Virus record (IMG/VR): IMGVR_UViG_3300020042_010175
Span: 1-24,004 of that record
From: a virus
Taxonomy: Duplodnaviria; Caudoviricetes
DNA: 24,004 bases
Direction: 5' to 3' (one strand)
A model generated the notes under the pieces. It was not told the origin of the DNA, did no database searches, and saw nothing but the letters and a program-made list of their open reading frames with translations. Of the stretch, positions 1 to 22,473 are shown in pieces. The stretch's first letter is position 1. The number at the start of each line of letters is the position of its first letter. Both the position numbers and the translations under genes were made by a program.

Positions 1-292
1 CAGTCAAAAGCAAATCCTCAAGTCTCGCCTGCCTGCGGGTCACATGGCCTACCCTGAAGGGCTCAGCGGCCCACTCAATAGCGAGACGGTCGTGATCCTC
101 GGCTGGTCGCTGCTCACACGACACAGCACCGGAGACCTCTACTCTCACCAATGGGAAGAATGGTATAACGGCATGGAAGCAGCTCAGGCGGCACTCAAGC
201 AGGGCCGCTACCAAGAGGAAAATATCCATCCAACCTACCTCTACGACTGGACCACTGGCCAGGGCTATCAGATCGAGGAATCCGCAAAATGA
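1..292 (+). CDS. Hypothetical protein in integron cassette 2 (probably 5'-truncated by window edge)
   Basis: The frame of ORF 44..292 is open back to base 2 (SQKQILKSRLPAGH-MAYPEG...), so the true start may lie outside the window. Its stop overlaps the next ATG (ATGA, 289-292). Confidence 0.65.
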   Translation, partial: SQKQILKSRLPAGHMAYPEGLSGPLNSETVVILGWSLLTRHSTGDLYSHQWEEWYNGMEAAQAALKQGRYQEENIHPTYLYDWTTGQGYQIEESAK

Positions 293-489
293 AAAACGCC
301 CCTGAACCCACACGCGGAGCGCCCCCGAAACGGGGCGCTACCGCCTCCGCCATCATCAACGTCCGCGTGGACGCTGACCGCAAAAACCACTACACCCGCT
401 TCGCGAAAAAGCGACGCGATGGAGACAAGACCCTCGCGGGCCTTGTGATCGAAACACTCGACGCGGCGACTGGCTACCGTGAGGAATGA
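289..489 (+). CDS. Small ribbon-helix-helix-like DNA-binding protein (cassette 2)
   Basis: 66 aa with a basic RGAPPK arm, an alternating beta-strand (IINVRVD) and two helices ending LAGLVIETLDAA. Coupled to the upstream ORF; its stop TGA (487-489) lies inside the attC R' box. Confidence 0.6.
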   Translation: MKNAPEPTRGAPPKRGATASAIINVRVDADRKNHYTRFAKKRRDGDKTLAGLVIETLDAATGYREE

Positions 490-588
490 GAACGATAAGG
501 ATCAGGCACAAAATGGGCGGGCTTGATGCCGCCTCGTCTAGTGCCTCTCAGCCCATTTTGTTGACCTGCATCCGCTGGTTAGGGCTGC
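487..588 (-). mobile_element. attC recombination site
   Basis: The minus strand reads GCAGCCCTAAC (R'') CAGCG GATGCAGG-TCAACAAAATGGGC ...loop... GCCCATTTTG-TG-CCTGATC CTTATC GTTCTCA (R'). This is an imperfect palindrome with extrahelical bases in the L'' arm, an unpaired central spacer and AAC/GTT ends. Predicted crossover G|TT at 493/492. Confidence 0.85.
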
Positions 589-649
589 TGGTCTGGAGCT
601 TTGAAAACGCGACAGCGCGGAGACAGTGAAAATGATTTGAAGTATTTAG

Positions 650-679
650 TTGCAATAACTTCAGCGCGCCCGATAAGTA
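650..679 (+). promoter_or_regulatory. Possible cassette-internal promoter
   Basis: AT-rich segment with TTGCAA (650-655) and a weak -10-like ATAAGT/TAAGTA 17-18 nt later, upstream of ORF 735. Inverted cassette genes would need their own promoter. Confidence 0.3.
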
Positions 680-734
680 GGGGTAGTCAGAAACAACCAA
701 ACCCGCCGAGGCGGTCAAACCTCGATCTCAAAAT

Positions 735-1127
735 ATGAAAAAGCTAGTCGCCAAAAACCCCGTAACAGGACTCTACTTCAACGGCAGAAACTTTGACGGC
801 ACCGTCGAAGAGGCCATGACTCTACGCCCTGGAACTACCGCTGAAACCTTCCGCTTTTCTTGGGCTTGTGGCGTGGTGGTCGAAGAAGTCGAAGTGACGG
901 AAAAGCTCACGGTTGAAGTGCGGACATACACCACATCAATCGGCAGAAAATACCGCTATGTGAAGCGCAGCGATGGCGCTGAATTTCAGGTGGTGAAAGC
1001 AGGGGTAGGATTGTGGGTGATTGAATCACAAAAAGACTTCGCCACTACTTCCGCCACCACGCTGAAAGCCGCGCTGTGCGACATCGTGAATAAACAAAGC
1101 AAAATCACCGGCCATGCCCGCACCTAA
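735..1127 (+). CDS. Hypothetical protein (cassette 1)
   Basis: 130-aa ATG ORF after an A-rich leader; overlaps the next gene by 14 nt; no recognisable motif. Confidence 0.7.
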   Translation: MKKLVAKNPVTGLYFNGRNFDGTVEEAMTLRPGTTAETFRFSWACGVVVEEVEVTEKLTVEVRTYTTSIGRKYRYVKRSDGAEFQVVKAGVGLWVIESQKDFATTSATTLKAALCDIVNKQSKITGHART

Positions 1128-1296
1128 AGGAAACAACTTCGCAGCCAAAGACGACGGGGAGCGCGTAGCGTTCCCCGTCAATGTCCGAGGCACCGAAACC
1201 GAACGGAAGGCTTGGCGCAAAGCTGCCGCTGGCCAGAAGTGGAACGATTGGGCGCGGGATGTCTTGAACGCCGCCGCAGTCCACAAGACGAAATGA
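1114..1296 (+). CDS. Small RHH-like DNA-binding protein (cassette 1)
   Basis: 60 aa. MPAPKGNNFAAK N-terminal arm (a motif common in phage DNA-binding proteins), VNVRG strand, helices ERKAWRKAA and WNDWARDVLNAAA. The stop directly abuts the cassette boundary. Confidence 0.65.
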   Translation: MPAPKGNNFAAKDDGERVAFPVNVRGTETERKAWRKAAAGQKWNDWARDVLNAAAVHKTK

Positions 1297-1364
1297 GCAG
1301 CCCTAACAAGTAATATCCTGCCCATTTTTCTTGATTTTACCCCCTAAATCGGAAAGTTTGCGCC
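1297..1364 (-). mobile_element. Putative attI site / intI upstream region
   Basis: Minus strand ...GGATATTACTTG|TTAGGGC provides a GTTRRR core immediately 5' of intI and divergent from it. There is no long palindrome here, consistent with attI rather than attC. Confidence 0.65.
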
Positions 1365-2357
1365 ATGAAGAAGGCGGAAATGCTCGAACAAGCACGGCTC
1401 GTCTGCCGTGTGCGCCGGTTATCTCGGCACACCGAATCCACTTACATCGGGTGGATTGCGCAATTCGCAGACCACATAAAAACATGCCCGTCTGCCACCC
1501 GTGAAGAGCGCGTCCGCATCTTTTTAGAGCATCTGGCACCGCGCTCCGCCGCATCAACGCAGAATCAAGCACTCAACGCCATCGTCTTTCTCTACCGCGA
1601 CGTGATCAAGCAATCCCTCGGTGAGATTGGCAAGTGGGCGCGTGCGCGTGTGCCTAAGCGTCTGCCCACATGGCTCGCGCCGCAGGAGATGCAGAAATTA
1701 CTCGCCACCATGCCCCCGAATGCGCGTCTGATGGCAGAGTTAGCCTACGGGTCCGGTCTTCGCATCGCTGAACTGCTCGCGCTGCGCATCAAAGACATCG
1801 ACCTGCACGCATGCCTGGTCACCGTGCGCGGCGGCAAAGGCGACAAAGACCGCATGACCGTTCTCCCCAAGTCGCTCGTGCTGCGACTGCATGCCCACCT
1901 AGATCGTGTGCGCGTCATCTATGATCGGGACCGCGCCGCTGGTGCGAATCCCATCTATCTCCCCGACGGACTAGAGCGCAAATTCCCCAACGGAGGCCGC
2001 GAGTGGCCGTGGTTCTGGCTTTGGCCGGCCGCGAATGAAAGCACCGACCCACGTCTCCACATCATCCGTCGTCATCACTTGCATGAAGCCACGCTCGGCA
2101 AGGCACTGCGCCTCGCCGCGCATAAAGCAGGCATCTCCAAACGCGTCACCGCACACACGCTCCGGCATTCATTCGCGACGAACCTCCTCGCTAACGGTGC
2201 TAGTATCACGCAGGTCCAAGAACTCCTCGGTCACAATTCCGTCGAGACCACGCAGGTCTATCTTCATTGTGTCCCGCAATTCGCCAGCACCATCACCAGC
2301 CCGCTCGATGTGCTGCCAGAAGCCTCGAATGTGGTCCCCTTTGTGCGTGCCGCTTAG
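1365..2357 (+). CDS. intI: Integron integrase (tyrosine recombinase, IntI family)
   Basis: N-terminal SRHTESTYIGWI and ASTQNQALNAIVFLY. Catalytic boxes YGSGLR, GGKGDKDR, HTLRHSFAT and LLGHNSVETTQVY. Integron-specific insertion LPDGLERKFPNGGREWPWFWLWPA..STDPR..IIRRHH closely matches IntI1 [35 protein letters not shown]. Confidence 0.95.
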   Translation: MKKAEMLEQARLVCRVRRLSRHTESTYIGWIAQFADHIKTCPSATREERVRIFLEHLAPRSAASTQNQALNAIVFLYRDVIKQSLGEIGKWARARVPKRLPTWLAPQEMQKLLATMPPNARLMAELAYGSGLRIAELLALRIKDIDLHACLVTVRGGKGDKDRMTVLPKSLVLRLHAHLDRVRVIYDRDRAAGANPIYLPDGLERKFPNGGREWPWFWLWPAANESTDPRLHIIRRHHLHEATLGKALRLAAHKAGISKRVTAHTLRHSFATNLLANGASITQVQELLGHNSVETTQVYLHCVPQFASTITSPLDVLPEASNVVPFVRAA

Positions 2358-2373
2358 ATACCCCCCCCCATCT

Positions 2374-2406
2374 TTGACACCGCCGCCGCATGAATGGCCG
2401 CTGTCA
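2374..2406 (+). promoter_or_regulatory. TTGACA start-proximal motif (first copy of a recurrent element)
   Basis: TTGACA 14 nt before ATG 2394, with TGACA/TGTCA inverted arms. The motif recurs at 4413, 6819, 8657, 9721, 16772, 20050 and 23048 (13-16 nt before starts) and at 5042, 5495 and 12103 (32-42 nt before starts). Confidence 0.6.
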
Positions 2407-2732
2407 CCATCGCCGATCTCACCTCGGACTATCGCTTCCACGCCCGCATTCTGCATGCGGGCTCCAATACCGCGCAGCTTCAATGGCTGACCGATCAATA
2501 CCTGCTTCTCGCTGAAGACCGCACCGGCGCTGAGATCACCGCGCAGGCATTCGAGGGCTCCAGCCACTCCGCACAATTCCGCGACTCCACGCCCGAGCAG
2601 CGGCGCATGGCCATTCAAGCTGCGATCGAAGACCTCGAATCCGTCATCGCTGGTCAAGTCGCCAAGTCACTCGCCCGCCCCTTCGGCTTTCGCTTCGCCC
2701 CTGGCTACGAGCCCGCCGCTGTGCTCGGCTAA
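2394..2732 (+). CDS. Putative head-tail joining/head completion protein (gpW-like position)
   Basis: 112 aa directly upstream of a lambda-type portal, with a helix-hairpin-helix-like pattern. Mainly synteny. Confidence 0.55.
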   Translation: MAAVTIADLTSDYRFHARILHAGSNTAQLQWLTDQYLLLAEDRTGAEITAQAFEGSSHSAQFRDSTPEQRRMAIQAAIEDLESVIAGQVAKSLARPFGFRFAPGYEPAAVLG

Positions 2733-2744
2733 TCCCCACACGCC

Positions 2745-4376
2745 ATGGCTAAACGCAAATCTTCCACCACCGCGCCCGCGTCCATCGCCAGCGCATCGCC
2801 CATCGTCAACGCCGCCACGACGACGACCAGCGTCGGCAGCTACCGCAGCACCCCGCGACTCACGCCGTGGAATTCCAAGAGCGTTGAGCGCATGCAGCGG
2901 TCCAAAGACATCGTGCAAATCTCCCGCTTTTTGCAAAGCGAGGAAGGCATCCCCCAGGTCCGCTACGGCATCCAGCAGCTTCCGCGTGAAGCCGTCGGCA
3001 AGGGCATCGGCTGCAAGTCCATCTCACAAGATGCCGCCTTCCGTCGCGATGCCACCGCCCTCTTCAAAAAATGGGCCGATTCCCCCGCCATCGATATCCG
3101 CAAGGAGCACAACCTCTTCGCGATTCAGCCGATGCTGCTCTCCGCCATGCTGGGCGATGGTGAGCTTTTCATCCTGCCCGTCTATGAGCCGACCGGCGCC
3201 TCGTGGTCACTCAATGATCGCAGCAAGCGAGCCTTTCAAATTCAACTCGTGAGCCGCGACCAGCTCACCAATGGCGACGTGCAAAGCGTCGCTGCCCGCA
3301 AGCTCCGCTGGTTTGACGGCCTCCAATACAACGGCCTGGATCAACTCCAGCTCCTGCGTCTGAATCAAGACCCCGACGCCAGTGGTTATCTGCTCTCTAA
3401 AGCGTTCACCGACATCCCGGCGGTCAATGCCATGGGGCACCGCAATATTTTTCACCTCAAAGACCCGACACGAATCCACCAGTATCACGGTGATCCCGTC
3501 ATCTTCGCGAGTGGTCGCGATCTGCTCGATTCGCTCGATCTTAAAGCCCTGCGCAAGCACTCGGCCAAGGTCCGCGCCTCGCTCCTCGGTGCCACCACCA
3601 CCCGCGATGGCAAGATGCTCAATGCGATGCAGCAGATCGCGCTCGCCGAGCAAGGTGGCAACCCCACCGCCGACACAGGCCGTCGCTTCGTCGAGGTCGC
3701 CGAAGGCGCAGTGTTCCTGCCGATGTCGGACAACGAGTCCTTCAACTTTTTCAACAACCCCCAAGAGGGCATCCCGTTTCGCGAGATCCTCGCCGATCTC
3801 CTCCATCCCTTCATGTTTGAGTTGAAGTATCCACCCGAGTGGATCTTCACCCGTGGCAAAGTCGGTGGCGTGGAATATCGCGGACTGCTCCAGCAGGTCG
3901 CCCGCGCTCACGAAGGCCTCCGCGCCCGCTTGTATCCCTTCCTGGAATGGCTGTGGGAAAAAGTCATCGGCACCGCCATGATGCCTGGTGGCCCACTGTT
4001 CCAGTATGCGAACATCGCCGACTGGAATCAGATCGACTTCGTCACCGATCCTGATCCCACCGTCGATGCCGGACGCGACAAACGCGCCGACCTCGAAAGC
4101 CTCGGCGAAAACCTCATCACGCCGGACGATCTCATCGAGCGCAGCACCGGCCAAGATGGCGAAGCCGTGCGCCATGCCGCCATTGATCAAAAGCTCGACA
4201 GCATCCGCTACGCCATCGCCCGCGCCAAAAACCTACCCCTCGACCAGGTCGAAATCCCTGCCTCCGTCGCCCTGGCCATCGGCATGGGCCTCAAGACATT
4301 GCAGCCCGCCTCCGGCATCCTCACGGCCCTCAATCCCGCCACCCTCGCCGCCGACATCGCCGAGCTGGATGCCTAG
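2745..4376 (+). CDS. Phage portal protein, lambda family
   Basis: 543 aa. AMLGDGELFI, DGLQYNGLD, IFHLKDPTRIHQYHGDP and PTVDAGRD segments resemble lambda gpB-type portals; sits before protease and capsid. Confidence 0.85.
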   Translation: MAKRKSSTTAPASIASASPIVNAATTTTSVGSYRSTPRLTPWNSKSVERMQRSKDIVQISRFLQSEEGIPQVRYGIQQLPREAVGKGIGCKSISQDAAFRRDATALFKKWADSPAIDIRKEHNLFAIQPMLLSAMLGDGELFILPVYEPTGASWSLNDRSKRAFQIQLVSRDQLTNGDVQSVAARKLRWFDGLQYNGLDQLQLLRLNQDPDASGYLLSKAFTDIPAVNAMGHRNIFHLKDPTRIHQYHGDPVIFASGRDLLDSLDLKALRKHSAKVRASLLGATTTRDGKMLNAMQQIALAEQGGNPTADTGRRFVEVAEGAVFLPMSDNESFNFFNNPQEGIPFREILADLLHPFMFELKYPPEWIFTRGKVGGVEYRGLLQQVARAHEGLRARLYPFLEWLWEKVIGTAMMPGGPLFQYANIADWNQIDFVTDPDPTVDAGRDKRADLESLGENLITPDDLIERSTGQDGEAVRHAAIDQKLDSIRYAIARAKNLPLDQVEIPASVALAIGMGLKTLQPASGILTALNPATLAADIAELDA

Positions 4377-4431: not shown

Positions 4432-5487
4432 ATGTCCCGCAAGACCTGGTTCACCATTCGCAACGCCGCCTCCGCCGAAGCCCCCGCTGAAATCTCCATC
4501 CACGACGAGATCGGCGCATGGGGTGTCAGCGCCAAAGATTTTCTCTCCCAGCTCCGCAGCATCGCGGCCGCGACTCCGATCACTCTCTCCATCCACTCGC
4601 CTGGCGGTGAGGTCTTTGATGGTCTTGCCATCTATCATGCGCTGAAGGCACGTGGGAACGTTACCGTGCGCATCGAAGGCCTCGCCGCCTCCATGGCCTC
4701 CGTCATCGCTATGGCAGGCACGCGGATCGAGATGCCACGTAATGCTTTCATGATGATCCACAACCCCAGCGGCTTTGCGGTGGGCGACTCTGCTGACATG
4801 CGCCAGCTCGCCGACCTGCTGGACAAGATCAAAGGCAGCCTCCTCGCCGCTTATCGTGAACGCACGAAAAAGAGCGACGAAGACCTCACCGCGATGATGG
4901 ACGCCGAGACCTGGCTCACCGGTGAAGAAGCCGTCGAGCACGGCTTTGCCGATGCCACCAGCGACGAAGTCGCCCTCAGTGCCTCCGCTTTCAAGACTGC
5001 CCGCATCACCGCCGCGCTGCGTCATGTGCCGAGTGCCCTCTTTGACATCGCGCCGCCAACGTCGCCATCGCGCACTCCCACCCCCATGAAAGCACTCCTC
5101 GCCCTCGCCTCACTCGTCGGCATCACCGTCAAGGGTGATGAAACTGAAGACCAGCTCACCGCTGCCATCACCGCGCACAAGCCGCAGTCTCCGAACGTCG
5201 TCATCGACTTCGAAGACGCCGCTGTGAAAGCCGCCTTCGCTGCCAGCATCACCGAGGCCACGAAGGACGACAAAGCCAAGCTGACCGCGCTGGAAACTGA
5301 GCTCGCCAAAATCACCGCCCTGCTCACCAACGGAGCCGCCGGTGCTGCCGGTGGCAACGCTCCCATCCAAGGCGCTCAAGGTGGCATCGGCAACCCCGCG
5401 AACACCATGACCCGCGCCGCCTTCAACCAGCTCCCCCACGCCGAGCGCAACGCCTTCATGGCAGCCAAAGGCAAGCTCGAAGACTGA
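4432..5487 (+). CDS. ClpP-like head maturation protease with C-terminal scaffold region
   Basis: IHSPGGEVFDGLAIY, GLAASMASVI (catalytic Ser), MMIHNP (His) and ETWLTGEEAVEHGFAD, followed by an Ala-rich/coiled-coil extension. Confidence 0.92.
   Translation: MSRKTWFTIRNAASAEAPAEISIHDEIGAWGVSAKDFLSQLRSIAAATPITLSIHSPGGEVFDGLAIYHALKARGNVTVRIEGLAASMASVIAMAGTRIEMPRNAFMMIHNPSGFAVGDSADMRQLADLLDKIKGSLLAAYRERTKKSDEDLTAMMDAETWLTGEEAVEHGFADATSDEVALSASAFKTARITAALRHVPSALFDIAPPTSPSRTPTPMKALLALASLVGITVKGDETEDQLTAAITAHKPQSPNVVIDFEDAAVKAAFAASITEATKDDKAKLTALETELAKITALLTNGAAGAAGGNAPIQGAQGGIGNPANTMTRAAFNQLPHAERNAFMAAKGKLED
5086..5487 (+). CDS. Probable nested in-frame scaffold protein (lambda Nu3-like)
   Basis: In-frame ATG after a Pro/Ser linker, preceded by a C/A leader (CACTCCCACCCCC) like other gene starts here and by TTGACA at 5042. 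Confidence 0.55.
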   Translation: MKALLALASLVGITVKGDETEDQLTAAITAHKPQSPNVVIDFEDAAVKAAFAASITEATKDDKAKLTALETELAKITALLTNGAAGAAGGNAPIQGAQGGIGNPANTMTRAAFNQLPHAERNAFMAAKGKLED

Positions 5488-5542
5488 TCGCAGATTGACA
5501 CCTCAAACCCAACACACCCCCACCTCTCACTAATCCAAATAT

Positions 5543-6715
5543 ATGGCTAACGACATCTCACTCACTGGACTCACCGAAACCCTCTATGCCGCTCGTGATC
5601 AAGTCGCGATGGAACCCACCGGCTTCGCCCAAGGCGTGATCGTCAACGGCGGTTCCGAAGGCATCTCCGCTGGCGGCACCGTCACTTCGCTGCGCACCAC
5701 CGAGCCCACGCTCGAGACCAGCTACACCCCAGCCATGACGGTGCCTGACGCCGCCGACATCACCACCAGCACCGAGACGCTGACTCTTTCCTCCTACGCG
5801 GGAGCCTCCATCCCGCTCAAGGGCGAGCAATTCGCTCAGCTCTCCAAAACCGTCGGCGCAGAGCTTGCTCTCCAGCAGCTCTATAAGCAGGCCATCCGCA
5901 AAATGCGCAACAGCATCGAGGCCGCAATCGGACTCGCCGCCTACCAAGGCGCAAGCCGCGCTGTCGGCACCGCTGGCACCACGCCATTCGGTTCCAACTT
6001 CGAGATCCTCGCGGATCTCTACCGCATCCTCGAAGACAACGGCACCCCGATGTCTGACGGCATGCTCTCGCTCATCCTCAACACCGCCGCTGGAGCCAAT
6101 CTGCGCAAGCGTTCGACCCTCACCAACGTGGGCGATGCTGGCACGGACGCAACACTGCGCCGCGGTGAACTGCTCAACCTCTTCAACATGTCCATCCGCG
6201 CCAGCGCGGGTGTGCAGGCTCACACGAAGGGCGCAGGCACGGGCTACCTCATCAACAACGGCAACATCGCCGTCGGCAGCACGACTCTCACTGTTGACGG
6301 CGGCACCGTGAACAGCACCGGCATCAAAGCTGGCGACATCATCACCGTGGCCGACGAGCCGACCGCAGGCAACTACGTCGTCAAGACCGGACTCACCGCG
6401 ACCTCTGGCAGCTTGGTGATTAATCATCCCGGCCTGCGTGGTGCCATCGTCAACGACAAGGCCGTCACCGTCGGCAACAGCTACACTGCCAACGTCGCCT
6501 TCCACAAGACCGCCATCGAGCTCGCGATGCGCCCGCCAGCACAACCTCCCGGCGGCGATGCCGGCGAAGAGATCGCGGTGCTGGTGGACGCTGACACCGG
6601 TCTCTCTTTCTCCGCCCGCCTCTACAAAGGCTACGGTATGAGCGAGATCAAGCTCATGGCCTTCTACGGCGTCAAAGTCTGGAAGCCTGAGTTCGTCGCC
6701 ACGCTCCTCGGCTAA
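5543..6715 (+). CDS. Major capsid protein (P22 coat-like, HK97 fold with insertion domain)
   Basis: 390 aa after the protease. LRRGELLNLFNM, IKAGDIITVA insertion domain, NVAFHKTAIELAMRP and C-terminal FYGVKVWKPEF; followed by a strong terminator. Confidence 0.88.
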   Translation: MANDISLTGLTETLYAARDQVAMEPTGFAQGVIVNGGSEGISAGGTVTSLRTTEPTLETSYTPAMTVPDAADITTSTETLTLSSYAGASIPLKGEQFAQLSKTVGAELALQQLYKQAIRKMRNSIEAAIGLAAYQGASRAVGTAGTTPFGSNFEILADLYRILEDNGTPMSDGMLSLILNTAAGANLRKRSTLTNVGDAGTDATLRRGELLNLFNMSIRASAGVQAHTKGAGTGYLINNGNIAVGSTTLTVDGGTVNSTGIKAGDIITVADEPTAGNYVVKTGLTATSGSLVINHPGLRGAIVNDKAVTVGNSYTANVAFHKTAIELAMRPPAQPPGGDAGEEIAVLVDADTGLSFSARLYKGYGMSEIKLMAFYGVKVWKPEFVATLLG

Positions 6716-6766
6716 TCGTGAGACTCTCACCCGGCGCGGTTATTCTTCGCCCGCCGGTGTCCCCTG

Positions 6767-6805
6767 CGCCGCGTCCCTTTTGGTTGGGGGACGCGGCGTT
6801 TTTTT
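6767..6805 (+). terminator. Intrinsic terminator after major capsid gene
   Basis: CGCCGCGTCCC / GGGACGCGGCG stem followed by 7 T. Confidence 0.85.
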
Positions 6806-6837
6806 GTGCCTTCACGCTTTGACATTTCCACCCCGGC

Positions 6838-7197
6838 ATGTCCGCCGCCCTCGTCACCAGTGAAAAGCTGCACCTCGCCACACTGTTGCAGCGGAACCCC
6901 TGCACCATCCTGCTCAACAATCGGCGTCTGCCTGCGGCCTTCATTGCGCGGCGTGGGGTGAAGTTTGAGAACGACGGCGGTGTCATCCAATCGCGCACGA
7001 TCAAGATCGTCGTGGCCTGCGCTTTGCTGCCCACCGCCGACCTCATCGACGCCACCACCGACAGCACCCGCGCCGTGCGTTTCACGCACGTCGAAACGGG
7101 TCGCGTCTATCAGCTCGCCACCGACGCCGGAGCACCCAACGAGTCCCCCCACAGCGTCTTCTGGACACTCACCGGCCAGCAGATCACCACGCAATGA
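6838..7197 (+). CDS. Putative head-closure/neck protein
   Basis: 119-aa beta-rich ORF after the capsid gene, with a TTGACA motif 13 nt upstream; synteny. Confidence 0.6.
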   Translation: MSAALVTSEKLHLATLLQRNPCTILLNNRRLPAAFIARRGVKFENDGGVIQSRTIKIVVACALLPTADLIDATTDSTRAVRFTHVETGRVYQLATDAGAPNESPHSVFWTLTGQQITTQ

Positions 7198-7853
7198 TCA
7201 CTCCGACATATCATGCGGCGGCTGGTTCGCGTTTCGAAGTCCAAGAGGCATTTGAGTTTGGAGTCTCTGGAGTCGTGAAGGTGGATCCCGTGGCGGTGCT
7301 ATGTTGCGCACCTGATTCAGTCTATCACTCGCTCCCTGGAGTCGAGTGTTTTAATGCTTCCCGTGACGTGAGGAGCTTTGTCGGCGGCGTGCCTGTGGTC
7401 GCCCATCCTGTCTGCGCCCCATGGAGCGCCTACTGTGCCCACCAGTGGAAACCCATCGAAGGCGTCAAAGACCTGGGGCCGCTATGTGTCCACTGGCTGA
7501 GAAAATGCGGCGGAGTATTGGAACATCCTGCACACTCCAGACTATTCGAGCACTGCAACCTACCACGACCAGGTGAAAGCAAAGATGGACTGTGGACGAT
7601 TGAAGTCAGCCAAGCGTGGTGGGGTTATTCGATGCTCAAAAAAACTTGGCTGGTCTTTTGCGGCCTAGAACCCACTGAAGTCATGCCGACAATCCCCAAC
7701 CAAAAGCATCACCCCAGAAGCGGCGAAGGTGACCGACGCAGGCAGCAGCGAATGAGCAAGCATCAACGTGCCGCCACCGTGCCAACATTGGCAAGGTGGT
7801 TGGTGGAAACAGCAAGACGGGCAAAGTGCCCAACCGAAAACACGCAATGATCA
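7188..7853. repeat. 13-bp direct repeat CACGCAATGATCA (7188-7200 and 7841-7853) flanking the moron
   Basis: Exact repeat read directly from the sequence; each copy contains an ATGA start/stop overlap. Confidence 0.85.
7194..7850 (+). CDS. DNA cytosine-methyltransferase-like moron protein (true start may be a GTG further downstream, near 7275)
   Basis: VVAHPVCAPWS resembles motif IV (PC) and GGVLEHP resembles motif VI (ENV-like). Codon and base style differ from the neighbours; flanked by 13-bp direct repeats. Confidence 0.55.
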   Translation: MITPTYHAAAGSRFEVQEAFEFGVSGVVKVDPVAVLCCAPDSVYHSLPGVECFNASRDVRSFVGGVPVVAHPVCAPWSAYCAHQWKPIEGVKDLGPLCVHWLRKCGGVLEHPAHSRLFEHCNLPRPGESKDGLWTIEVSQAWWGYSMLKKTWLVFCGLEPTEVMPTIPNQKHHPRSGEGDRRRQQRMSKHQRAATVPTLARWLVETARRAKCPTENTQ

Positions 7854-8623
7854 GCGCCAACGTCCAACTCGGCCCGTTGCTCAAAAAGCTGCGGCAGGTG
7901 CCGCGTGAGGCAGCGGCGATCATGGCGAAGGCCATCGAGGACGACGCACGTGGCTTTGTGCGCGACATCGCCGCCATCACCCCGCCCAGCATGAACAAGA
8001 CCGACGTTGCATCCAAAAAACGTGGCGAGTCTGCCGTCATGCGCGACGTGTGGAAAGTCTATGCCACCCCCGGCAAACTTTATGCCATCATCAAGGCGCG
8101 AGACGAAAAACTCGCCGCCGCATTTTGGGCAGCGGTAAAGCATAAAAACTGGCCGCAAGCTGCCCGCATTTGCAAAACGCTCGGACTCAAAGAACTCATC
8201 GACTTCGGCAGCGACGACGGAGCCGCCCACGAAAAACGCCGAGGTCGCAATGGCCGCGTCACCGGCACCAAGCCGAGCGAGCATGTCCGTGATGCCCGCT
8301 ATGTGAAAAGCTACATCAAGCAGCAACAGTCCCGCGTCGGTCTGCTCGCCTCCGGCTTCGCGCCCGCCGCCGCCCGTTTGAAGACTTCGCTTCCGACCTG
8401 GATCACCCGTCATCGGCAAACCGTCGGCAGCATCAGCGTCATCCCTCGCCCAGACCAATTCACCATCGTCATCACGAATCGCGCCCGTCATGGTCGCGCC
8501 AATGACCTCTCCCGCCGCATGCAGTTCGTGTTGCGCTCCGGCAAACGCCAAAAACGTCTGCAAAACTCCATCCGCTACAGCATCCGTGCTGCCCTCAAAA
8601 AGTCACGACTCCAAGTCGCGTGA
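7847..8623 (+). CDS. Putative tail completion/neck protein (HK97 gp10-like position)
   Basis: Basic 258-aa protein starting MISANVQLGPLLKKL at the ATGA overlap; synteny. Confidence 0.55.
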   Translation: MISANVQLGPLLKKLRQVPREAAAIMAKAIEDDARGFVRDIAAITPPSMNKTDVASKKRGESAVMRDVWKVYATPGKLYAIIKARDEKLAAAFWAAVKHKNWPQAARICKTLGLKELIDFGSDDGAAHEKRRGRNGRVTGTKPSEHVRDARYVKSYIKQQQSRVGLLASGFAPAAARLKTSLPTWITRHRQTVGSISVIPRPDQFTIVITNRARHGRANDLSRRMQFVLRSGKRQKRLQNSIRYSIRAALKKSRLQVA

Positions 8624-8627
8624 GATC

Positions 8628-8650
8628 GTGACCCAGGCTGCAAGCCTGTG
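8628..8650 (+). repeat. REP-like short palindrome, copy 1
   Basis: GTGACCCAGGCTGCAAGCCTGTG; related copies at 9681-9703 and 10154-10175. Confidence 0.65.
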
Positions 8651-8678
8651 CCCTCTTTGACATCCACTCACAGTCACC

Positions 8679-9089
8679 ATGGCAGACATCTCCATCACCG
8701 CTTCCAACGTCATTGGCTCCGCCGCCGCACGGCGAGTCAGTAAATCCGCCGCCAGCACCATCACCGCAGGCCAACCCGTTTATCTCACCAGCGCCGGCCT
8801 CGTCGCACCTGCGGACGCCAACGCCTCCGCCACCACCGCCCAGGTCTTCGGCATCGCTGAAAACGGCGGGGCCACCGGTCAACGCATCAGCGTCATCACG
8901 CAGGACCCTGCGCTCGTGATCGGTGCCACCGTCGCCATTGGTGACGTGCTCGTTCTCTCCGCCACTGCCGGTGGCATCGCTCCCGCTGCCGACCTGGTCA
9001 CTGGTCATTTCTGCACCGTGCTCGGCGTCGCCATCAGCACCACGGCCATCAATTTTGCGCCGGTCGCCGCAGGCGCAGCCAAAGCCTAA
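8679..9089 (+). CDS. Capsid decoration/cement-like structural protein
   Basis: Ala/Thr-rich 136 aa. ITAGQPVYL..ADAN..VFGIA and IGDVLVLS..AGGI pattern typical of small beta-rich virion proteins; has its own terminator. Confidence 0.6.
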   Translation: MADISITASNVIGSAAARRVSKSAASTITAGQPVYLTSAGLVAPADANASATTAQVFGIAENGGATGQRISVITQDPALVIGATVAIGDVLVLSATAGGIAPAADLVTGHFCTVLGVAISTTAINFAPVAAGAAKA

Positions 9090-9111
9090 ACCCTGTCCCC
9101 TCATGCGTTGG

Positions 9112-9169
9112 AGCGCCGGTGACCGTGCAAACGGCACCGGCGCTTTTTTTCTTTTTTTTCCTTTTTTTT
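9112..9169 (+). terminator. Intrinsic terminator
   Basis: AGCGCCGGTG-a-CCGT GCAA ACGG-CACCGGCGCT stem with a GNRA loop, followed by three T tracts. Confidence 0.85.
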
Positions 9170-9201
9170 CTGCCCTGTCAGCATTCACCACTCACCACCA
9201 G

Positions 9202-9684
9202 ATGCCCTCCACCTCACCCGCCGCTCATTTCAGCACGATCTTTGCCGACTACTCCGCCAGCGCCGCCGCTTTAGCCCTTTCCGGCGTCCCTAGCGCGTCG
9301 CAGCTCCCTCGCCGCACACATTCCTCATCCAGCGCCCTCACGCATCCACACGCGTTGTTTGAGGTCGAGGTCGATCCCGAGTCTGCCGACACCCTACTCA
9401 CCCTCACGCTCAACCTGCGGCTGCAAATCAACGTTGGCACGGAGACCGGCCAGACCACCCGCACTCAGGCCCACGCCTGGCTGCAAGCCCTCCGCCGTCT
9501 GCTCGACGACGACCAGCTCGGCACCTGGCAGACCTTCATCCAGGCGCAAACAGACGCCTACCGCGAAGGCTGGGACATCCAGGCCATTTACCCGGGCACC
9601 ATCACCGACGACTACAATGAGGAAAAAACGCTCCTCACCCTCACCGCCCCCTTCCAGGTCGTCACCTTCTGGAACAACGTGTGA
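9202..9684 (+). CDS. Putative tail terminator protein
   Basis: 160 aa from ATG 9202 (the longer 8923 ORF would run through a terminator). Alpha/beta pattern, located just before the tail tube. Confidence 0.55.
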   Translation: MPSTSPAAHFSTIFADYSASAAALALSGVPSASQLPRRTHSSSSALTHPHALFEVEVDPESADTLLTLTLNLRLQINVGTETGQTTRTQAHAWLQALRRLLDDDQLGTWQTFIQAQTDAYREGWDIQAIYPGTITDDYNEEKTLLTLTAPFQVVTFWNNV

Positions 9685-9703
9685 CACAGGCTGCCAAGCT
9701 GTG
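9681..9703 (+). repeat. REP-like short palindrome, copy 2
   Basis: GTGACACAGGCTGCCAAGCTGTG overlapping a stop codon. Confidence 0.6.
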
Positions 9704-9742
9704 GTTCGCACATCGCCAGTTTGACACCGCCCGCTCGGTGTC

Positions 9743-10153
9743 ATGACTCCCCTCTTCACTTCTGGCACCCGTCCCAGCTCCCTTAAATCCGAGTCCGGTC
9801 TCTTCGTCACCGACTTCTCGGTCAAGCCCACCCGCACCTATGACGACGTGCTCGGCGTCGCCGCAGGCGGTGCCGTCCCTGAGCTGCTCTACACCGAGGC
9901 CTACGGCCTCGTGACCGACATCACCCTCACCGGCATGCCGATCCCCACCAGCGGTGGAGCACTGCAAGGCCTCGCCGCCCTGGAGGATGCCGACACCCTC
10001 GCCAGCCTCGCCAACCTCATCGACGACGAGGTCTTCGGCCTCACCCTCAGCACCGGCACGATCCAAAGCCGTGAGCCTGAATTCAAAAAGGCCCGCAGCG
10101 GCACCGGACGCGAGTTCAGCCTCAACCTGAAGCACTGCCACGCGATGAACTGA
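9743..10153 (+). CDS. Putative major tail tube protein
   Basis: 136 aa, beta-rich (TDITLTG ... EFSLNLK), between the tail terminator and chaperone genes; followed by a terminator. Confidence 0.55.
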   Translation: MTPLFTSGTRPSSLKSESGLFVTDFSVKPTRTYDDVLGVAAGGAVPELLYTEAYGLVTDITLTGMPIPTSGGALQGLAALEDADTLASLANLIDDEVFGLTLSTGTIQSREPEFKKARSGTGREFSLNLKHCHAMN

Positions 10154-21225: not shown

Positions 21226-22473
21226 ATGCGAGAGACGAGTCAGAGTGTGAAATATGGCGGGGTGGAGGCGCGGATTTCGCGCCGGGGCGATGGGCGTTTT
21301 GTGGTGCGGTGGCGGGAGGCGCGGCAGGGACGCTCGACGACGGCGATGACGCGGGAGGGGGCGCTCAAATTGGCACAGGCCAAGGTGCGGGAGTTGGCCG
21401 GCAAAGCGGGATCGCGCATGGTCTCGGTGATCGAGGCGGAGGCGGTGCAAGGACTGCTGGAGATTGCGGGGGCGAGGTCGCTGCATTCGGTGGTGGAGAC
21501 GGTGCGGGATGCGGTGCGACGTTGCGATGGTTTGGCGAATGTTTCGCGGGCGGTGGATGCCTGGCTAAAGGCGGGGCATGGGGCACTAGATCGAACAACG
21601 ATGGCGGTGGCGGTGCCGCGTTTCTTGGCGCTGCATGCGCGGTCTTCGTGGGAGCATCTGGCGGGGCTGCGCAAGGAGCTGGGGGCATTTGTGATGCGCT
21701 ATGGTGAGGTGTCGGTGTGTGACCTCGACGTGGAGATGCTGACGACGTGGATCGGGCGACCACGTGAGGATGGCGCAGAGATCGGAGCGCGATTTTTTAA
21801 CAATCGCTTGGCGTCGTGGAAGACGTTTCTGAATCGGTGTCGCGAGTGGGGAATGCGTGCGAGAGGTGAGCCGCATCCGGCGGAGGTGATTAAAAAACGA
21901 AAGGAGGCGGACCCGGTGCCGGAGATTTTTAGCGTAGACCAGGCGCGGAAGATTTTGGCGCTGATTCGTGCGAAGGAGCCGCAGTGCTTGAACTATTTTG
22001 TCATCGGCTGCTGGATGGGGCTGCGTCCGTTTGAGATGCGGCGGATCACCTGGGCGATGTGGGACTGGGAGCGCGGTTATTTGGACCTAGGGCCGCAGGT
22101 GGCGCTCAAGACGATGCAGCAGCGTTATGTGCCGATCCCGGAGAATGTGCGGGCGATGCTGCGCGGTGCCAATGCTGACGCACGCTGGGGCAAGAAGTGT
22201 AAGCGTGCGGCAAAGCATTGCGTGAGGACGACGGATCAACCGCACCTCATGCGACTGCTGAAGGCGGCGAAGGTGATGAGCGTGTGGCCGCAGGACATCA
22301 TGCGGCACTCGTATATCTCGTATCGCCTGGCACAGGGGCATGGACGCGGCCAGGTGGCTGAGTGGGCGGGGAACTCCGAGGGGGTGATTCGGAAGCGGTA
22401 TCGAAGGCCGCTGCGGAAGGAGGACGGGGAGGCGTGGTTTGCCATCGGGATTGAGACGCGGATGAATTCATAA
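21226..22473 (+). CDS. int: Phage integrase (tyrosine recombinase)
   Basis: 415 aa. N-terminal arm-binding-like beta domain; GLRPFE (Arg), ALKT (Lys), DIMRHSYISY and WAGNS..VIRKRY (Tyr); adjacent to the att core. Confidence 0.88.
   Translation: MRETSQSVKYGGVEARISRRGDGRFVVRWREARQGRSTTAMTREGALKLAQAKVRELAGKAGSRMVSVIEAEAVQGLLEIAGARSLHSVVETVRDAVRRCDGLANVSRAVDAWLKAGHGALDRTTMAVAVPRFLALHARSSWEHLAGLRKELGAFVMRYGEVSVCDLDVEMLTTWIGRPREDGAEIGARFFNNRLASWKTFLNRCREWGMRARGEPHPAEVIKKRKEADPVPEIFSVDQARKILALIRAKEPQCLNYFVIGCWMGLRPFEMRRITWAMWDWERGYLDLGPQVALKTMQQRYVPIPENVRAMLRGANADARWGKKCKRAAKHCVRTTDQPHLMRLLKAAKVMSVWPQDIMRHSYISYRLAQGHGRGQVAEWAGNSEGVIRKRYRRPLRKEDGEAWFAIGIETRMNS

Follow-up and report, generated by a model that had tools for sequence, protein, structure and literature searches.

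A probable phage-resident integron with inverted cassettes beside the head genes of a temperate phage

Integrons are viewed as bacterial devices and, lately, as stores of anti-phage defence genes, and complete ones in phages are regarded as rare captures (three in 10,705 genomes). Whether a phage can hold an integron of its own is the question raised by the left end of IMGVR_UViG_3300020042_010175, a Caudoviricetes record of which positions 1 to 24,004 were analysed (24,004 nucleotides; hereafter the window). Here, an integron integrase gene (intI) with an attI site and attC-bearing cassettes is followed downstream by genes for a portal, a Clp protease, a capsid protein, a tape measure, an amidase and a second integrase (Table 1). 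An initial annotation of the same DNA had described a complete integron in a phage head region. We consider it likely, from sequence comparison, that the element is a phage-resident, functional integron whose inverted cassettes would be read by phage or cassette promoters. At the level of sequence, it passes every integron test except that of sense expression driven by a cassette promoter (Pc): the window has no Pc promoter with sense cassette genes.

Integrase, attI and attC of the window element

The 330-residue IntI scores 339 bits against TIGR02249 (cut-off 265), and its residues 9–315 align to Vibrio IntI4 (PDB 2A3V, E 5e-66) with the integron-specific insertion included. The catalytic R, K, HxxR, H and Y are all intact, and all six motifs are present, as they are in 89 of 117 full-length relatives when sought by regular expression. 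The ratio of nonsynonymous to synonymous substitution rates is about 0.08–0.11 in close intI pairs, and by this comparison the gene is under purifying selection. Its stop codon lies 36 bp from the next ATG (2394), and homology to relatives restarts 3–15 bases past the stop, with a TTTGAC motif intact. At third codon positions, intI has a C-rich skew of only −0.22, compared with −0.42 to −0.50 in the adaptor, portal, protease and capsid genes, a difference which suggests that intI arrived later than its neighbours; across phages, codon-3 skew in intI tracks that of the surrounding strand and varies from −0.72 to +0.75.

On the − strand, a GTTAGGG core begins with the G at 1307, 58 bp ahead of the intI ATG, and matches GTTRRRY at six of seven positions. 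In 15 aligned regions upstream of intI, conservation reaches the GTT and drops beyond it. Four loci with near-identical intI genes (L007, L008, L009 and L010) have nearly the same upstream DNA up to the GTT and different DNA after it. Conservation up to the GTT with divergence beyond is how an attI site behaves. The attC of cassette 1 was the sole hit of our scanner in 24 kb (score 17; no hits in six Markov controls). Folding of the − strand gives a z-score of −2.4 and folding of the + strand one of −1.5; rebuilt as an excised circle, the site has a canonical hairpin probability of 0.83.

Most of what the initial annotation had said of the element is borne out: an IntI with the integron-specific insertion and intact catalytic boxes, a divergent GTTAGGG junction 58 bp upstream of intI, an intI stop 36 bp from the head genes, a second cassette that runs off the window, and a complete integron, comprising intact IntI, attI, a canonical attC, one whole cassette and part of a second. 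Two of its statements need adjusting. The structured attC that it had placed at 487–588 is real but ends at 584, the longer interval taking in an extended repeat, and the C-rich style that it had seen intI share with the head genes is present but weaker in intI.

Table 1 Features of the integron and the adjoining head genes, with positions in the window
Feature	Position	Strand	Basis or remark
Cassette 2, incomplete (leaves the record), from the R' core G/TTCTCA (G at 493)	1..492	−	66-residue gene and core end recur in the L032/L046 slot
Cassette 2 open reading frame (ORF), antisense to attC	44..292	+	ORF call; frame open from base 2, start possibly off-record
Cassette 2 small ORF, 66 residues; stop overlaps core-site repeat	289..489	+	91% homologue in L032/L046
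attC of cassette 1: R'' CCCTAAC (584–578), L'' with three extra bases, stem-loop of ~60 nt, L', R' GTTCTCA (493–487)	487..584	− (top strand)	Scanner, folding; 95–96% copies in L032, L046 and L073 on other cassettes
Cassette 1, 814 bp, bounded by 12-bp inverted repeats (578–589, 1296–1307)	493..1306	−	97–98% unit in other runs; breaks at 1307 and 565
AT-rich leader; sigma70-like −35 TTGCAA (650–655), weak −10	630..680	+	Candidate cassette promoter towards intI (inferred)
Cassette 1 ORF, 130 residues, antisense to attC	735..1127	+	Three homologues; Atlas best 0.77; AF2 pLDDT 57
Cassette 1 small ORF, 60 residues, probable ribbon-helix-helix autoregulator (lead only)	1114..1296	+	Atlas clusters
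attI, GAAA..GGATATT-ACTT-G/TT conserved; crossover between 1307 and 1306	1305..1332	−	Alignment; loose end of another run at 1307
intI, integron integrase of a virus-dominated clade	1365..2357	+	Profile, structure alignment, tree
TTTGAC motif ahead of several structural genes	2373..2378	+	Relatives' homology restarts at 2360–2372
112-residue gene, head–tail adaptor by position only	2394..2732	+	Follows terL in relatives
Lambda-type portal, first gene of the conserved structural module	2745..4376	+	PF05136, phrog_21; 55 related loci

Inverted cassettes and a virus-dominated integrase clade

All four cassette ORFs of the window lie on the + strand, antisense to attC, directed towards intI and in line with the phage operon, an orientation that the initial annotation had overlooked. 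Orientation was tallied over distinct cassettes between adjacent attCs, the better-scoring strand being kept for symmetric attCs. Among 19 viral cassettes, 18 were antisense, none was sense and one was unclear; 41 cellular cassettes from GTDB gave 4, 32 and 5, respectively, and 14 cassettes of distant metagenome loci gave 0, 9 and 5. An out-of-sample set of 25 viral cassettes, 22 of them beside distant IntIs, yielded 23 antisense, one sense and one unclear. The viral total is thus 41 antisense, one sense and two unclear, with antisense cassettes also found in separate viral IntI clades. The attC lies upstream of intI on the opposite strand in all 42 of the 75 viral loci that have an attC within 3 kb (re-fetched, duplicate loci included).

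With intI bound in line with the phage operon and attI facing away, only cassettes with inverted genes would be read. Inversion might instead be set by replication, through the template bearing the attC bottom strand: array orientation relative to replication governs excision in chromosomal integrons, according to PMC5371416. The same layout is, however, found on G-rich intI strands (L004, L007 and L080) and on C-rich ones (the window, L001, L006 and L013). A different arrangement is present in Virus Rctr41k (L244, KX853513.1), where positions 4680–10101 hold an IntI-like gene annotated xerD and then six attC-like sites on the same strand. All genes of this virus are encoded on one strand; intI lies on the strand that forms the attC top strand, and the cassettes downstream of it, which include methyltransferases, are in sense orientation, an inverted-integrase layout. 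The occurrence of one layout on strands of either skew, together with this other route to one-strand coding, makes transcription direction the likelier constraint behind cassette inversion, as judged from these layouts; control by replication appears quite improbable.

Expression of the cassettes would come from upstream phage transcription, or from a promoter of their own accompanied by a small repressor gene, rather than from Pc, and the same transcript may reach intI. Four relatives have an intI start only about 34 nt from the crossover, which leaves little space for an intI promoter. Two-gene cassettes combine a variable gene with a small helix-turn-helix (HTH) or ribbon-helix-helix-like gene, often with an AT-rich leader; such leaders were seen in 8 of 11 hand-picked cases versus 1 of 144 control windows. 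A LexA-like box was found neither in the window nor in eight of nine other IntI loci scanned with a putative Verrucomicrobia LexA motif.

The integrase itself belongs to a virus-dominated clade. A first scan of such contigs returned 16 IntI loci at 67–81% identity, and a scan with alignment returned 79 loci at 38–81%. In GTDB, the best 80 of 206 loci included a single one with more than 50% identity. Among 145 genomes of Verrucomicrobiaceae, the likely host family, 48 have an IntI, of which one is ~73–74% identical and the rest at most 48%. This sole close cellular match sits in 12 kb of phage-like DNA (DUF5131 twice, HTH) at one end of a Verrucomicrobiaceae contig whose remainder is cellular. 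FastTree, run on the larger set, placed the window in a clade of 30 rows (support 99) in which a single genome row joins rows from viruses and metagenomes; the clade stands beside Verrucomicrobiota IntIs at modest support. A quick IQ-TREE run on a smaller set also gave 99 and put L176, a long-branch metagenome row of unsure placement, inside the clade. Two further viral IntI groups, one of 17 rows (99) and one of 5 rows (96), branch separately in the FastTree result. Among the gene contexts are DnaB–array–intI–terL, repressor–array–intI and ParB–array–intI–primase, and portal, capsid and integrase genes also occur.

The clade and its contexts bear on the suggestion that the element is a passenger, a fragment of a host's chromosomal integron acquired by chance in the manner of the Vibrio prophages that Qi et al. 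2023 (PMC9892861) described. This route is a published one; a contig of a metagenome-assembled genome (MAG) carries the ~73–74% IntI and an array beside cellular genes, and the skew of the window intI is only partly like that of its neighbours. Other cellular IntIs are, however, at most 50% identical and accompanied by sense cassettes, whereas the IntI clade of the window extends across at least four phage gene contexts. At least 120 IntI clusters at 60–92% were found on contigs of at most 44,219 bp, 16 of them at 29–44 kb, a weak argument as most of these contigs are short. Passenger status is thus largely refuted, and we give it very little credence.

Cassette exchange and the terL–adaptor slot

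A portal search returned 55 related loci at 64–100% identity, and the terL end (phrog_15) and the adaptor are both present in 44 of them. The spacer between the two measures 16–126 bp in 18 of these loci, and the remaining 26 (20 distinct) carry inserts of 372–2608 bp. Inserts start at an AAC or AAT overlapping the terL stop (19 of 26), at a resident attC flank (six) or at neither (one); starts of the first kind are consistent with the GWT secondary site of Loot et al. (bioRxiv 10.1101/2022.09.11.507474). L032 and L046 have the window attC (96%) and the 66-residue gene (91%) in this slot, as does a complete relative; in L073 the attC is attached to another cassette, and region 560–739 of the window is matched in the same slot of L025, L043 and L047. 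One sub-lineage displays stepwise growth, from a lone attC in L069 to L072, L074, L071 and L073, which have the cassette nearest terL in common and carry additional ones on the adaptor side. Core and inverse core agree 4/4 in eight of nine cassettes of the window's portal family. Two relatives with a completeness rating of 100%, of which the first has an array and the second is empty, gave no match to an IntI query that found 5/5 IntI records. The former, G009, has three attCs, matches the window collinearly over 15,035 bases and is by definition a cluster of attC sites lacking an integrase (CALIN). The adaptor-side spacer of L065, L032 and L046 contains attI-like sequence without intI, which suggests that the integrase was lost or that the site alone was captured.

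Phage genes flank the integron on its right side in the window and, by synteny, probably on its left, and they are present on both sides in the IntI loci L007, L286 and L346. The last is a 35-kb contig among the Verrucomicrobiaceae genomes that shares the structural module of the window and has an integron with four attCs upstream of terL. Could the window nevertheless be an assembly chimera near 2360 that joins an integron contig to a phage head region? There is no spanning contig and no second record with the intI–adaptor junction. Yet the DNA to the left of intI matches the slot of the relatives (the attC at 95–96% in L032, L046 and L073, the 66-residue gene, and the 560–739 region), homology restarts immediately past intI with the TTTGAC motif undisturbed, and L346, a distant member of the structural family, has a complete integron upstream of terL. 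A chimera is therefore hardly credible.

Movement of the cassettes can be followed in public data. Cassette 1 occurs in two public runs from different studies at 97–98% identity, departing from the window at 565 and at or by 1307; a third run holds window positions 699–1245. The run with a loose end at 1307 continues like the attC arm of L005, L007 and L010 and has another attC body on the far side. Breaks at 565 and 1307 with changed flanks indicate that cassette 1 moved between attI and an attC neighbour, and that attC bodies were swapped between cassettes. Cassettes change neighbours exactly at the G/TT point. The best public run contains 0.22 of the window's words, with three intI pieces at ~100%. 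Clustering of attC bodies at 80% identity gave 40 phage-only, 99 cell-only, 0 mixed and 8 other clusters; four clusters join IntI phages to the IntI-less portal family of the window. By this measure, phage attCs are common to phages and not to the cellular arrays examined. L246 and L248, viral contigs of 200 kb and 121 kb from unrelated large phages without IntI, have only the R' half of the window attC, at a gene end, and were rejected as full attC copies.

We favour a phage-domesticated integron that probably serves a phage cassette pool in trans, a reading drawn from comparative sequence data. IntI would excise cassettes by attC × attC recombination, and their insertion would take place at attI or, where a relative lacks IntI, at an attC or attI-like site already resident there. 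Arrays without intI would have been seeded at the GWT secondary site overlapping the terL stop codon, and their phages would depend on integrase supplied in trans by a prophage or by another phage infecting at the same time; the shared attC pool favours phage IntI in this role. Alternatively, IntI-less arrays may be served by a host chromosomal IntI, or may be leftovers of intI loss that move by homologous attC recombination, phage IntI acting in cis only. Host supply draws on the presence of IntI in a third of the 145 host-family genomes (48) and on the finding that phage attCs are IntI1 substrates (Qi et al., PMC9892861); the swapping of attC bodies between cassettes is unexplained by plain G/TT recombination, and the attI-like sites of L065 and L032 would fit intI loss. 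However, no attC cluster is common with the cellular arrays examined and four are common with IntI phages, and growth at one end of the array (L069; L072, L074, L071 and L073) and the 4/4 agreement of core and inverse core in eight of nine cassettes also speak against it. We regard this alternative as unlikely, if the most serious of those raised.

The slot data also bear on the wider picture in the initial annotation. Its proposal that the array sits between terminase and portal agrees with the terL–adaptor inserts of relatives, some of which carry the window attC, although in the window terL is placed by synteny, the left flank being off-record. The variable cassette content for which it had proposed to compare related phages is seen at this locus (short spacers in 18 of 44, inserts in 26 of 44, some with the window attC). 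A moron-capture platform likewise accords with these inserts, but the layout is not the bacterial one and most relatives use the slot without intI. Phage-resident integrons, which it had called rarely described, are rare in print but common among the viral contigs retrieved.

A bolder version, which we hold to be possible but do not lean towards, is that IntI was domesticated several times, and that a phage-only pool of inverted cassettes is traded among unrelated phages, with few IntI carriers serving many IntI-less arrays, storing counter-defence genes and making cassettes from phage genes. In such cassette genesis, an attC would land at the AAC of a gene's 3' end, and template switching would copy that end to the other side, which would explain terminal repeats of 8–12 bp and the presence of one attC body on different genes, and would open the making of cassettes to observation. 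Many cassettes (L025, L044, L068 and L073) have genes that read into attC and stop inside it, with recurring C-terminal peptides; genes ending in this manner are a possible trace of cassette formation. Terminal repeats of at least 9 bp occur in 10 of 15 viral versus 6 of 23 cellular cassettes (among those with at least 7 bp; p 0.02), and more weakly in an out-of-sample set (8 of 25), only a hint of longer repeats in viral cassettes.

Phage context, cargo and known systems

The GC skew of the window turns from C-rich to G-rich at ~21000, just ahead of the second tyrosine integrase gene (21226–22473, 96% in G009), which indicates a temperate phage. The phage is probably a temperate one of ~38 kb with a Verrucomicrobiota host, the host assignment being based on the binning of the 35-kb portal-relative contig and on the IntI tree; portal relatives were found in 9 of the 145 Verrucomicrobiaceae genomes (best 53%). 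TTTGAC precedes several structural genes, at 2373, 4412, 6818, 8656, 9720 and 12102, and is a possible late-expression signal of this phage family. Pfam and PHROG profile searches gave no family match for the 112-residue gene. Positions 7194–7850 hold an optional gene (phrog_12600) with a short direct repeat at its borders, absent in L027, L029, L031, L037 and L046. It was rejected as a degenerate cassette, having the direct repeat in place of an attC; one homologue is itself an attC cassette in L061, and another is found among the array genes of L303. The tail-chaperone region of relatives is a further hot spot for attCs (L044, L046, L049, L050, L055, L060, L061 and L079), and no attC was found at this spot in the window.

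None of the four window cassette ORFs has a Pfam, PHROG or NCBIfam match, and for the first ORF of cassette 2 (44..292) the viral-contig scan gave no relative. AlphaFold2 (AF2) models of both cassette 1 proteins are of low confidence (pLDDT 57), that of the 60-residue protein being uninformative; in the Atlas, this ORF resembles viral hypotheticals (0.95) and NikA-like and TacA1 clusters (0.91, with the family on 16–27% of members). The 66-residue ORF, a probable ribbon-helix-helix regulator, belongs to a cluster of 36 members, aligns weakly to the 60-residue ORF and stands beside a different upstream gene in L032 and L046.

Cargo was collected more widely as 81 ORF clusters from 44 array regions, a set that may include non-cassette genes and contains six ORFs from the MAG locus. 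A Pfam or PHROG match was obtained for 19 clusters: six DNA methyltransferases, three HTH proteins, a PAPS-reductase-like protein, an RNA ligase, a CHC2 zinc finger and four weak or unnamed families, among others. An Acb2/Tad1 hairpin domain (30.7 bits, cut-off 27) belongs to a protein encoded between two attCs (L005:6807-7187), a candidate anti-CBASS/anti-Thoeris cassette. A Tet/JBP-like oxygenase, just below the cut-off, stands beside an FkbM methyltransferase in the terL–adaptor slot (L043:4787-6350), a possible DNA-modification cassette. The cargo that could be identified thus consists mainly of DNA methyltransferases and other DNA modifiers. Named families of this kind are known for shielding phage DNA or blocking defences, and by analogy the named cargo would fit a role in tuning phage counter-defence and DNA modification.

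Several points weigh against a functional phage integron working in this way. The attC scanner and the gene calls are purpose-written scripts, and the integrated attC adopts the canonical fold with a probability of only 0.015. No contig or read in the public runs searched spans the intI–adaptor junction (2357–2394) or extends the record leftwards, and scans of viral contigs for the exact attI and for the 130-residue and 96-residue cassette proteins gave no match and did not recover the left flank. The placement in the window is a single observation, intI being found in this slot in none of the 55 portal loci. A third of the viral IntI loci and more (33 of 75) have no attC within 3 kb, many of these loci ending early, and a generic promoter scan of both strands of 1–2800 found no promoter. 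The Fisher p of 7.5e-11 for cassette orientation overstates its support because related phages are not independent. The host-family genomes with an IntI of their own (48/145) might supply activity in trans just as well. Finally, as 62 of 81 cargo clusters have no family match, all four window ORFs included, a counter-defence role draws on a minority.

If this account is true, phages hold dedicated integrases and a separate cassette pool of inverted design, which would provide a site-specific mechanism for phage mosaicism and moron exchange. It would also offer a bounded, minable source of counter-defence genes, most of them without a family (62/81 clusters), and a natural series of cassettes that share attC bodies and have terminal repeats derived from genes, on which ideas of how cassettes arise could be tested.

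The window element resembles chromosomal and mobile integrons (Vibrio IntIA/IntI4, class 1) in the IntI insertion and catalytic set, the upstream and divergent attI, the attC with extra-helical bases, the chain of core and inverse core, and growth at one end. It differs from them in lying in operons of phages capable of lytic growth, in cassette genes antisense to attC and directed towards intI with no Pc found, in an IntI from a virus-dominated clade, and in an attC pool apart from the cellular arrays examined. Qi et al. (PMC9892861) reported three complete integrons, one In0 and 17 CALINs in 10,705 phage genomes, the complete ones being a captured piece of a Vibrio chromosomal integron, class 1 integrons carried by P1 and, within a cryptic prophage, an integron of the Shewanella type. 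Phage attC arrays and DNA methyltransferase cargo are common to their set and ours, whereas a phage-specific IntI lineage, uniform inversion and a shared phage pool are not described in the main text of that paper; our literature search, which covered few subscription papers, likewise found no description of such a lineage or of uniform cassette inversion.

Inverted-integrase integrons of the Treponema type, as presented by Cury et al. 2016 (PMC4889954), also have intI and cassette genes on one strand. There, however, intI is on the attC strand; in the window intI does not lie on the attC top strand, so that intI and attC remain divergent and the genes are flipped instead. The attG insertions of Loot et al. 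(bioRxiv 10.1101/2022.09.11.507474) share the GWT target, matched here by the 19 of 26 inserts at the terL stop, but those are scattered laboratory insertions in E. coli, whereas here members of a phage family repeatedly use a single fixed site. Integrons described as anti-phage biobanks, in bioRxiv 10.1101/2024.07.02.601686, similarly carry small cassette genes, mostly of unknown function, for phage–host conflict; in contrast to these, the cassettes in our study are carried by phages, and their named members are methyltransferases, DNA modifiers and an Acb2/Tad1-like protein.

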